From assembly GCA_963702845.1 (NCBI GenBank), contig OY969763.1:1536001-1600000 (forward strand): DNA of 64,000 nucleotides, read 5' to 3'. Position 1 is the stretch's first letter. Each line of letters begins with the position of its first letter. Source of the DNA: an uncultured Verrucomicrobiae bacterium. Its GTDB lineage: Bacteria > Verrucomicrobiota > Verrucomicrobiia > Limisphaerales > Palsa-1400. Shown here in pieces: positions 19,120-20,158 of the stretch. A model generated the notes under the pieces. It did not search any database. It worked only from the letters and a program-made list of their open reading frames with translations, and was not told the origin of the DNA. The position numbers and the translations under genes are program-made.

Positions 19120-19326
19120 TCATTCGTTGGTTTTGACCAAACGGATATCCATGACATCATCGGGATTGAAAGCTTCATCGGTTTGACAATCTTCACCGTT
19201 GAACACTAATGCGTTCTCAATGAGATGATTGTTTTTCAGGACCAAGGTTACCCTCTGGTAACCCATTCCCGACTCGGGCATCTGTGCCAGACGCTGGCTC
19301 CAGAATTTGTTGAGGCGGATGATCAT
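19120..19326 (-). CDS. Small protein homologous to the N-terminal domain of the upstream toxin-like gene (candidate antitoxin or partner)
   Basis: MIIRLNKFWSQRLAQMPESGMGYQRVTLVLKNNHLIENALVFNGE; ATG 1 nt after the upstream TAA. Confidence 0.75.
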   Translation of the reverse strand: MIIRLNKFWSQRLAQMPESGMGYQRVTLVLKNNHLIENALVFNGEDCQTDEAFNPDDVMDIRLVKTNE

Positions 19327-19327
19327 C

Positions 19328-20158
19328 TTATCTGTCCGGGATGGTCGTTGGTCCGGCAACTGTGCCATCGGGCAGCCCCAGAACAAAGATCACTTCTTCA
19401 CCACCTCCGGGCTGATTGTTAGCGGGTTGCACAGTTCCACGTTTAACCTCCGAATCCTTCGCCGGTGAGATAGTGAACACGTTGCTTGCCGGCTTGCTGT
19501 TTGGCAGCGCATATCGTGCGACCGCATCTGTTCCGGTACGAACGTGCGCATCCGCGTCCTGCTTTGTCGTCGCGAACGTTCCCGGAGTAAGGCCTTTGCC
19601 TGAAGTGACGCGTATGTCGTTGGCGTACTGCGAAAAGCGTTTAAATATTTCGTTTTCTACGGTCAATGTAACCGGGGCTGTTTCAGCAGCCGCGCTTTTA
19701 GCACATAAGGAAAAGTTCTGGGCTTCCGCGAGTAAGGTGGTGCGCGTATTTCCCAATGCGTAACTGGCCTGACTTTCTTTCCGGTTTGCCAGAACTCGGA
19801 ATTTCTCGTTTGCGAAGACTACTTGGCGCACTCCTTTCAGCGTTTCGGGTTCGCGGGGTATAAGTGTTACATTCTTTACTATCAACCTCGATTTCCTCGC
19901 CTCGGTAAGGATGTAATTCCAATTTCCGAACATGTGGTAAGGGTAATCGTCCCGTTTCAAAAAAACCTGGCTGTTGACTACTATTCCTGATTCTGTTCCA
20001 CCGGTGTTCAAAGTGGCGATCACCTTTTGGTAGCCCATGCGATACTCAGGTTGTTTAGACAACCAATATTCCAACCATCCTTCTAGTGGCAGCATGGGGA
20101 GTTGATAAGCGCGTGCGTACGATAACGCAATCCGTTTTCGCGAGATTTCGACGCTCAT
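19328..20158 (-). CDS. Two-domain protein: PExxMGYQ domain plus C-terminal TNT-like (NAD+ glycohydrolase/ART-fold) toxin domain
   Basis: C-terminus FKRFS...PGTFATT...ARYALP...VKRGTVQPANNQPGGGEEVIF resembles the TNT motifs RALP...G.VAP..GQPGGG.Q. Confidence 0.65.
   Translation of the reverse strand: MSVEISRKRIALSYARAYQLPMLPLEGWLEYWLSKQPEYRMGYQKVIATLNTGGTESGIVVNSQVFLKRDDYPYHMFGNWNYILTEARKSRLIVKNVTLIPREPETLKGVRQVVFANEKFRVLANRKESQASYALGNTRTTLLAEAQNFSLCAKSAAAETAPVTLTVENEIFKRFSQYANDIRVTSGKGLTPGTFATTKQDADAHVRTGTDAVARYALPNSKPASNVFTISPAKDSEVKRGTVQPANNQPGGGEEVIFVLGLPDGTVAGPTTIPDR

Follow-up and report, generated by a model that had tools for sequence, protein, structure and literature searches.

Why would a toxin carry, as its own N-terminal domain, a second copy of the protein encoded by the gene that follows it? 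The question is raised by a 64,000-nucleotide stretch of contig OY969763.1 (positions 1,536,001 to 1,600,000; hereafter the window) from an uncultured Verrucomicrobiae bacterium, in which two adjoining genes on the minus strand, at 19120-20158, encode a putative nicotinamide adenine dinucleotide (NAD+) glycohydrolase (NADase) and a 68-residue protein homologous to the N-terminal domain (N-domain) of that enzyme. A first-pass annotation, made from the nucleotide sequence and its open reading frames (ORFs), had described the pair as a cytoplasmic toxin module and had offered three roles for the small protein, those of antitoxin, homotypic lock or decoy. Our analysis points to a translationally coupled operon of a new toxin-immunity family, a candidate abortive-infection NADase, in which the small protein is predicted to plug the catalytic cleft of the toxin.

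The toxin gene occupies, as a maximal ORF, positions 19328-20158 and ends in a TAA codon at 19328-19330; its 276-residue translation contains LEGWLEYWLSKQPEYRMGYQKV and the strings KRFS, RYALP, and QPGGGEE. The small gene (19120-19326), with an ATG start, 68 codons and a stop codon, follows on the same strand after a single G at 19327, in the junction GACAGATAAGATGATC. The two genes, their 1-nt spacing and all the strings quoted in the first-pass annotation are present on the minus strand as described there. The true start of the toxin is probably the ATG at 20095, which yields a protein of 255 residues beginning with MLPLEGW, because the homologues are mostly 255-262 residues long and the first 21 residues of the longer frame are unmatched in all 27 aligned homologues. 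We use the 255-residue scheme throughout; adding 21 gives the numbering of the 276-residue ORF. The toxin is composed of three parts. The N-domain, a paralogue of the small protein (19859-20095, about 80 residues), has the topology β1-α1-loop-β2-β3-β4-helices-β5 and is linked by a helical hairpin (19694-19849, model helices 83-112 and 116-134) to a C-terminal TNT/Tne2-type "palm" domain (19331-19693), which the structure model and fold matches predict to be an NAD(P)+ glycohydrolase. The linker varies in length among the relatives and is far shorter in those of about 220 residues. In the small protein, the loop LAQMPESGMGY (19258-19290) is predicted to enter the catalytic cleft and is called here the plug loop; its counterpart in the N-domain is the loop LSKQPEYRMGY (20030-20062), the coordinates of which were checked.

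The toxin gene and the small gene form an obligate, translationally coupled unit. We assembled 89 loci, 9 from species-representative genomes and 80 from metagenomes (the best 80 of 205 confirmed). The nine genome loci, all from Verrucomicrobiota (Limisphaerales, Chthoniobacterales, and Akkermansiaceae), carry without exception an ORF of 66-77 residues with the motif LPE[ST]GMGYQ directly 3′ of the toxin gene. In the metagenome loci, the small ORF is a separate frame in 78 of 80 and in frame with the toxin in one (L082), while the contig of the last (L072) ends 30 nt past the toxin. The distance from the toxin stop to the start of the small gene is between −4 and +7 nt in 85 of the 89 loci, the other four being cut by a contig end (three) or fused in frame (one), and the toxin comes first at every locus. 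Adjacent co-directional genes that are inherited together, as in type II toxin-antitoxin (TA) pairs, are thereby found in 85 of 89 loci, and the search for conserved two-gene synteny that the first-pass annotation had suggested shows the genes to co-occur in essentially every assessable locus. An exhaustive HMMER search returned 791 clusters at 50% identity with E ≤ 1e-3, 556 of them at E ≤ 1e-10, and the family extends past Verrucomicrobiota, with one member annotated from a Nitrospirota metagenome-assembled genome. In a sample of 401 genomes of the phylum, the toxin domain is rare: it was found in two at E ≤ 1e-10, the window's own genome, which has a single copy of the module, and G302, in which the domain lies on an Rhs protein without a plug-domain partner. 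The small domain was found in three of the 401 at E ≤ 1e-5.

The small protein and the toxin N-domain belong to one homologous family, and the shared N-terminal pattern that had been noticed by eye proves to be a significant alignment. BLASTP aligns the two window proteins at E 3e-5, with 14 of 39 residues identical, and the comparison by hhalign of a 28-member toxin alignment with a 15-member small-protein alignment gives a probability of 94.7% (E 5.8e-8, 43 columns). A hidden Markov model (HMM) built from the small proteins alone detects the toxin N-domain in 81 of the 89 loci, with 18-40 bits (median 28.6); the eight misses are L001-L005, which form the window's own clade, and three truncated or split ORFs. 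In a maximum-likelihood tree, 61 N-domains and 55 small proteins are split by one branch, with an SH-aLRT (approximate likelihood-ratio test) support of 97, and the branches of the small proteins are much shorter than those of the N-domains. This tree is the product of a quick search, a careful one being unfinished; it uses the first 50 residues of each domain (51 columns, 116 distinct rows, identical sequences merged) from the window and 75 of the 89 loci, and leaves out the 14 loci that had no N-domain HMM match or no small-protein match of at least 75 bits. We read this as meaning that the small protein is an ancient paralogue of the N-domain, the two stemming from one old duplication of which both copies have been kept since.

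The conserved residues of both copies cluster at the plug. The small-protein alignment has 10 invariant columns, among them Leu13, Pro17, Glu18, Gly20, Met21, Gly22, Asn43, and Glu45, and among 135 toxin relatives the N-domain residues Glu17, Met20, Gly21, Gln23, and Asn41 are nearly invariant. The N-domain thus keeps the counterparts of the residues by which the plug is predicted to make contact; in all cases it lies at the N terminus, with the linker of variable length between it and the enzyme. It is modeled by AlphaFold2 (AF2) with a predicted local distance difference test score (pLDDT) of 84-96 over most of its length. Neither the small protein nor the N-domain matches a family in Pfam, NCBIfam, PADLOC or PHROG. 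In addition, no DNA-binding domain, of the kind that serves autoregulation and is typical of type II antitoxins though not universal among them, was found by Pfam, NCBIfam or PADLOC, and the conserved residues of the small protein all lie in the plug.

The predicted structure confirms that the C-terminal domain adopts the palm-domain fold of the TNT/Tne2 NADases, a twisted antiparallel sheet with peripheral helices. The AF2 model of the toxin, computed with 135 sequences, has a mean pLDDT of 88.6, values of 89-98 for residues 135-255 and a predicted template modeling score (pTM) of 0.60. An earlier model from a 32-sequence alignment, with a mean pLDDT of 56 and less than 50 in the catalytic domain, was discarded for this one. 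When the model was compared with the Protein Data Bank (PDB) by Foldseek, seven matches were obtained at E ≤ 1e-3, every one of them a NADase (Tne2, the Aspergillus fumigatus NADase, AfNADase, and Rhs1-CT). The best is Tne2 (6b12_A; E 1.1e-4, TM score on the target 0.69, 119 columns); the AfNADase matches have E 3e-4 to 1e-3 and Tse6 is weaker. A VIA comparison with 48,161 chains gave Z ≥ 8 for two only, again Tne2 (Z 10.9, rmsd 3.2, 112 aligned of 119, model residues 130-255) and Rhs1-CT (Z 10.3, rmsd 3.2, 111 aligned), the remaining rows (Z ≤ 7.4) being generic helical hairpins that match the linker. Foldseek against the viral structures of BFVD gave no match at E ≤ 1e-3. The likeness to TNT-type NADases claimed in the first-pass annotation stands at the level of the fold, in both Foldseek and VIA, and is weak by sequence: PF14021 (TNT) matches the window toxin at E 0.069, and NCBIfam offers no model for it. 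This is the only Pfam family found among the toxin relatives, 33 of 135 matching it at E ≤ 0.01 (best 7.2e-5). Taken with the fold, hydrolysis of NAD(P)+ is the most likely activity of the C-terminal domain.

Prediction of the complex places the small protein in the catalytic cleft. For the toxin with the small protein, the controlled prediction gave an ipSAE of 0.62 (runs 0.63, 0.62, and 0.58), against 0.01 for the best of three controls; in the calibration of this score, 116 of 157 solved complexes and 2 of 215 mismatched pairs reach the mark, a calibration that holds roughly here as the inputs were the 135-row toxin alignment and the small protein's own alignment, unpaired. Contacts agree between the runs to at least 95%, and the partner is modeled with a pLDDT of at least 84. 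On the toxin side, the modeled interface comprises residues 153-157, 159-162, 170-176, 191, 195, 197-199, 203, 234, and 236, and takes in four of the six invariant residues (Arg153, Asp160, Arg162, and Glu234) together with Gly172, Thr176, Tyr195, Leu197, and Pro198. On the side of the small protein, it comprises residues 10, 13-18, 20-23, 40, and 42-45, which hold the eight invariant columns named above out of ten. Not one residue of the N-domain belongs to it. The model supports, rather than demonstrates, that the small protein binds the toxin directly and blocks its cleft. The predicted plug agrees with a published principle, namely that the immunity proteins of TNT-type NADases, although mutually unrelated, all occlude the cleft with a structured loop (PMC10539506).

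Independent genomic support for an immunity role comes from a different kind of locus. In L110, a Rhs-family protein (1351-3140, minus strand; E 2e-59 to an RHS-repeat protein) ends in a domain that matches the catalytic profile (hhalign 95.5%, E 1.4e-8) with the Arg and Glu conserved, and a 96-residue plug-domain protein (hhalign 97.6%, E 3.5e-12) begins 2 nt after its stop. The plug-domain gene here occupies the classical immunity position of a polymorphic toxin. Among the three roles proposed at the outset, that of antitoxin or immunity protein is favored because the modeled loop lies in the cleft and because the same domain follows a Rhs toxin with a related C-terminal domain; the homotypic lock finds no N-domain residue in the modeled interface, and the idea of a decoy or sensor suits the tethered N-domain better than the free copy.

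The reading that we favor, with a probability of roughly 0.62, is that the module is a translationally coupled, cytoplasmic toxin-immunity operon, akin to type II TA systems and of an unnamed family, in which a plugged NADase serves abortive infection. The toxin would consist of the β-rich N-domain of about 80 residues, the variable helical linker and a palm domain of about 120 residues that hydrolyzes NAD(P)+. The 68-residue protein would insert its invariant PE[ST]GMGYQ loop, with Asn43 and Glu45, into the cleft formed by Arg153, Asp160, Arg162, Tyr195, and Glu234 and so neutralize the toxin. The N-domain would be a second, tethered plug able to occupy a cleft in cis or in trans, with a possible function as safety catch on the nascent enzyme, as sensor arm for infection, or as both. 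A safety catch is conceivable because the toxin is translated before the immunity protein, so that a plug that is first out of the ribosome would guard the interval. Infection would then remove or titrate the plug or plugs, NAD+ would collapse, and the infected cell would stop supporting the phage. Abortive infection is the most likely role given that the module is rare, has no delivery domain and has a predicted NAD-directed chemistry, and we give it about even odds. Plugging by the tethered N-domain, whether in cis or in trans, is the least secure step.

The genomic surroundings are consistent with a role in defense. As context outside the module, at a distance of 4-12 kb, the window contains a defense island (7409-15924) with three TIR genes (7409-7933, minus; 9402-10310, minus; 11269-12132, plus), two FRG genes (8220-9038, plus; 14392-15924, minus) and a gene for a 676-residue SIR2_2 protein (12271-14301, minus), all assigned by Pfam; genes of the island match the PADLOC models PDC-S66/ThsB, PDC-S15, and ThsA-like. 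We also searched the 148 ORFs that flank the module in the 27 loci with a length of 5.5 kb or more. Defense or mobile-element neighbors occur in 14 of these 27 long loci, an association obtained without a scored control set and not a statistical test. They are FRG (L001); ThsB_TIR, SLATT, and a resolvase (L002); a methylase and GmrSD-HNH (L003); Mrr and NERD (L004); MmeI (L006); a methylase (L038); RhuM (L043); an integrase and SIR2 (L044); NYN and FRG (L050); MmeI and an M78 peptidase (L055); HEPN and HNH (L065); ApeA (L068); BsaWI restriction-modification (L075); and DUF499 and SieB (L083).

Several observations weigh against the favored reading or parts of it. The defense role is drawn from association, and 13 of the 27 long loci have only housekeeping, unannotated or defense-unclear neighbors, the last being a PLD-like protein (L060), helicases (L053 and L008), and a Hint-domain protein (L071); moreover, PADLOC-DB v2.0.0 gave no family at E ≤ 1 for either protein. 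Membership of the toxin in the TNT family is weak by sequence (14 bits, below the gathering cut-off of 27 for PF14021), profile searches of PDB sequences with two toxin alignments gave no match at E ≤ 10, and Foldseek matches the model only poorly to TNT itself (4qlp_B, E 0.30). The invariant Glu that appears to take the place of Gln means that the chemistry could be ADP-ribosyl transfer and not hydrolysis. The complex score is a model confidence, obtained from self-supplied unpaired alignments. For plugging in cis, the monomer has a pTM of 0.60, and it was the free protein that the complex model placed in the cleft, with the tethered N-domain outside it; in the window's clade (L001-L005), the N-domain loop has drifted to PEYRMGYQ and the small-protein HMM finds none of these domains. 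Finally, an antibacterial role may apply, since Rhs toxins carry relatives of the catalytic domain.

The main alternative is a plain addiction module, that is, a selfish TA cassette that stabilizes the genomic islands on which it travels and has no part in phage defense. Tight coupling and this architecture would fit any type II TA system, the module resembles mobile cargo in its rare and patchy occurrence, L002 and L044 have integrase or recombinase genes close to it, and both the long loci without a defense neighbor and the missing PADLOC match are as this explanation would have them. On the other hand, in the window itself and in about half of the long loci, the module has restriction-modification, TIR, SIR2, FRG or HEPN genes around it, and the plug-domain copies in phage virion-module proteins described below suggest that phages are involved. 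We hold addiction as the sole role to be unlikely, and addiction and defense are not mutually exclusive.

A second alternative concerns the reaction: the toxin could be an ADP-ribosyltransferase that modifies protein, DNA or RNA instead of a simple NAD+ glycohydrolase, under the same toxin-immunity logic. In the 135 sequences, the invariant residues are Arg153, Asp160, Arg162, Gly220, Gly230, and Glu234 (Arg153, Asp160, Arg162, and Glu234 being Arg174, Asp181, Arg183, and Glu255 of the 276-residue ORF, with their codons checked), and Phe151, Gly172, Thr176, Thr177, Asp180, Arg194, Tyr195, and the ALP and GGG motifs are nearly so. Arg153-Phe154, Arg162, and Tyr195 are invariant or nearly invariant, and GGG-x is followed by an invariant Glu rather than by Gln. 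Arg153, Thr176/Thr177, and Glu234 resemble an R-S-E arrangement. Judged from the motif, Glu234 appears to be the counterpart of the Gln of the known NADases. According to two reports, the characterized TNT-type NADases have a conserved Gln at this ribose-contacting position (PMC10539506, PMC7955114), and the second of them describes an acidic residue in transferases and cyclases where AfNADase has Gln194 (PMC7955114). The transferase reading is retained because the invariant Glu appears to replace this Gln. We nevertheless consider it improbable, as the significant structural neighbors are all pure NADases (Tne2, Rhs1-CT, AfNADase, with Tse6), the sole transferase among the matches listed, C3bot2, has E 1.1, and TNT is the only Pfam signal.

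Copies of the plug domain are also found in phage proteins. A search for longer proteins with the small domain returned 20, the majority being toxins, products of frameshifts that fuse the pair, or gene calls that extend too far. Among the others, P0133 is a phage portal protein of 1074 residues (Pfam Phage_portal 65-400; phrog_12, E 2e-95); its plug domain (462-526) lies past the portal core and leads into a long stretch rich in Ala and Glu. On the viral contig L093, a 294-residue protein (3837-4724) joins the plug domain in frame to a head-maturation protease (phrog_80, E 4e-64). The genes before it are, in order, those of the small terminase, the large terminase and the portal protein, labels read from the ORF translations, and the portal gene directly precedes it. 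An internal Met right behind the plug domain of the fusion could be the protease's own start. A third protein, incomplete and at least 312 residues long, bears the domain at its N terminus (viral contig L010, 6001-6936). A segment from the non-plug part of P0128, a close relative of this protein, matches at 48% identity a stretch of a 2419-residue ORF (3417-10676) on the 73-kb viral contig L107; this ORF has DUF7178 as its only Pfam match and has nothing but the non-plug part in common with the L010 protein. Pfam recognized no family in the L010 protein, P0134, P0136, P0137 or P0140.

Broader searches for viral copies had mixed outcomes. The toxin profile found no relative on the viral contigs, tblastn of the small protein against 50,697 phage records gave no match, and PHROGs has no family for either window protein, 15 small proteins giving chance-level matches only. 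In the ESM Atlas, the best matches of the small protein were clusters of 66-71 residues (scores 0.94-0.95), in which Uroviricota was the commonest phylum among the 5-14 members per cluster of known phylum; this is a lead only, and a search restricted to named clusters gave no usable match. The phage-borne copies suggest antitoxin mimicry, possibly associated with the virion, as a hypothesis only. Three parties may then contend for a single NADase active site, with the plug domain, of about 65 residues, as their common currency: the free copy would keep the enzyme off, the tethered copy would be a co-translational safety catch and sensing arm, and phages would have captured the domain into virion-associated proteins (as a protease fusion, a portal insertion and an N-terminal copy), so that a mimic made late, or delivered with the DNA, could disarm the system. 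We regard this full scenario as quite doubtful.

It is very unlikely that the module is an interbacterial effector-immunity pair, exported by an unrecognized route with the N-domain as an adaptor or trafficking domain, while the small protein shields the producer and its kin. The nearest solved structures are indeed type VI secretion system (T6SS) effectors with immunity proteins, and related catalytic domains are C-terminal on the Rhs proteins of L110, with its plug-domain immunity gene, and L111, in which the Rhs protein (3-3360, plus strand) is followed by an unrelated 190-residue protein without a Pfam family. Orphan immunity genes occur for such toxins, and L109 contains an orphan plug-domain gene (1495-1695, minus strand; 66 residues, 77.7 bits) with no toxin domain nearby, located downstream of DUF6978 and DUF1828/DUF1829 genes and beside a KTSC-domain gene. 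Against this, Pfam detects no PAAR, Rhs, LXG, WXG or MuF domain in the toxin and no signal peptide is seen by eye, which bears out the first-pass annotation in its statement that a signal peptide and an RHS/WXG delivery domain are absent. Furthermore, none of the 148 flanking ORFs of the 27 long loci carries a Pfam family recognized as a secretion-system component, and the homology of the N-domain is with the immunity protein and with no trafficking domain.

A homotypic lock, in which the small protein would pair with the N-domain, by sheet augmentation or by capping an oligomerization surface, and leave the active site unblocked, is highly improbable: paralogous domains often heterodimerize, the architecture itself had prompted the idea, and the domain arrangement of the toxin is uncertain (pTM 0.60), yet three concordant runs put all contacts on catalytic residues 153-236 and none on the N-domain, and the plug domain also partners the Rhs toxin of L110, in which no N-domain copy was detected, a search of its genome with the small-protein profile having matched the downstream gene and nothing else, with the Rhs ORF incomplete in the fetched stretch.

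The immediate surroundings of the module have some further features. The GC content at the module (0.49) is slightly below that of the surroundings (0.52-0.58). A scan of 18800-21000 for promoters and terminators found sites no more frequent than in shuffled sequence, and a search of positions 1-30000 of the window found no tRNA. Just upstream of the toxin gene, the intergenic segment 20296-20579 holds two copies of a direct repeat of about 148 bp, which are 74-95% identical in segments and lie between the toxin gene and a small helix-turn-helix (HTH) gene; they may be regulatory or an insertion remnant. The HTH gene (20891-21262, plus strand), divergent from the toxin gene, encodes 123 residues with sub-threshold matches only, to HTH_23, Terminase_5, and the PADLOC JetD model (E 1e-6). 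Between the module and the FRG gene, three co-directional ORFs of 311, 378, and 266 residues (15972-18956, minus strand) have no Pfam or PADLOC family, and the middle one starts with a lipoprotein-like signal, as judged by eye. On the other side, a 2010-residue ORF (23560-29592, plus strand) is made of many repeats of about 100 residues; its last residues look atypical and the next ORF begins at 29652, so that the sequencing may have a break here or the frame a shift.

Depletion of NAD+ figures centrally in bacterial immunity, with TIR, SIR2, and SEFIR enzymes, whereas TNT-type NADases are known as secreted weapons with unrelated, family-specific immunity proteins. The present module adds to them a large family, counted above in 791 clusters, of cytoplasmic, delivery-less TNT-fold enzymes, and a very small immunity family with an invariant loop predicted to mimic whatever fills the cleft. 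If the tethered copy is a cis-inhibitor or a sensor, the module would be a compact model for how TA pairs become infection sensors, and for TNT-type NADases the 65-residue plug could provide a portable inhibitor scaffold. With the phage-borne copies, antitoxin mimicry as counter-defense can be put to a direct test; if the three-way contest is true, a toxin bearing its own immunity paralogue would be countered by a virion-borne immunity mimic.

Among known systems, Tne2-Tni2 from the T6SS of Pseudomonas protegens (PDB 6B12) gives the best structural match to the C-terminal domain. [quoted passage not shown] Tne2 is, however, the C-terminal domain of a secreted PAAR effector, whereas the toxin described here has no delivery domain and is 14-18% identical to it; no relation of Tni2 to the 68-residue family emerged in the searches made, and the present toxin bears a paralogue of its own immunity protein. 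Rhs1-CT-RhsI1 of Serratia marcescens (PDB 6XTD), TNT-IFT, Tse6-Tsi6, and AfNADase have the palm-domain fold in common with it. With the TNT-like NADases it also shares inhibition by a loop that enters the active site, as published (PMC10539506), but those enzymes are reported to have a conserved Gln (PMC10539506, PMC7955114), whereas an invariant Glu is found in this family. Their immunity proteins are of greater size and unrelated to one another, and the match to TNT itself is weak (E 0.30).

RES-Xre and MbcT-MbcA, with an NAD+ phosphorylase as toxin, are cytoplasmic two-gene TA systems in which the NAD+-consuming toxin is neutralized by direct binding (PMC6436930). They differ from this module in the toxin family, RES, in the DNA-binding Xre antitoxin and in having no copy of the antitoxin on the toxin. 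The gene order also differs, since in RES-Xre the antitoxin comes first and here the toxin does. Fic proteins follow a like concept, in that the inhibitory helix comes either from a small antitoxin acting in trans (class I, VbhT/VbhA) or, in cis, from the N or C terminus of the enzyme itself (classes II and III), whereas both copies are always present together here; fold and chemistry are unrelated. CapRel carries an antitoxin-like domain in the toxin polypeptide and is a phage-sensing abortive-infection device, as reported in its description (PMC9712102). It has no separate antitoxin, whereas a free copy is present here in essentially every locus, and the toxin chemistry and the domain order differ. 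The trait in common is the immunity-like domain fused to the toxin, always accompanied here by the free copy, with the arrangement of the toxin's domains uncertain in the model (pTM 0.60).

The architecture matches none of the named systems in Pfam, NCBIfam or PADLOC, as the first-pass annotation had anticipated, and no paper on the module or on the GMGYQ motif was found in searches of full-text literature. A NADase toxin with a cleft-blocking immunity protein is a known kind of system; what appears to be new is the immunity family, the cytoplasmic form without a delivery domain and, most of all, a toxin in permanent fusion with a paralogue of its immunity protein, the free copy being kept beside it.

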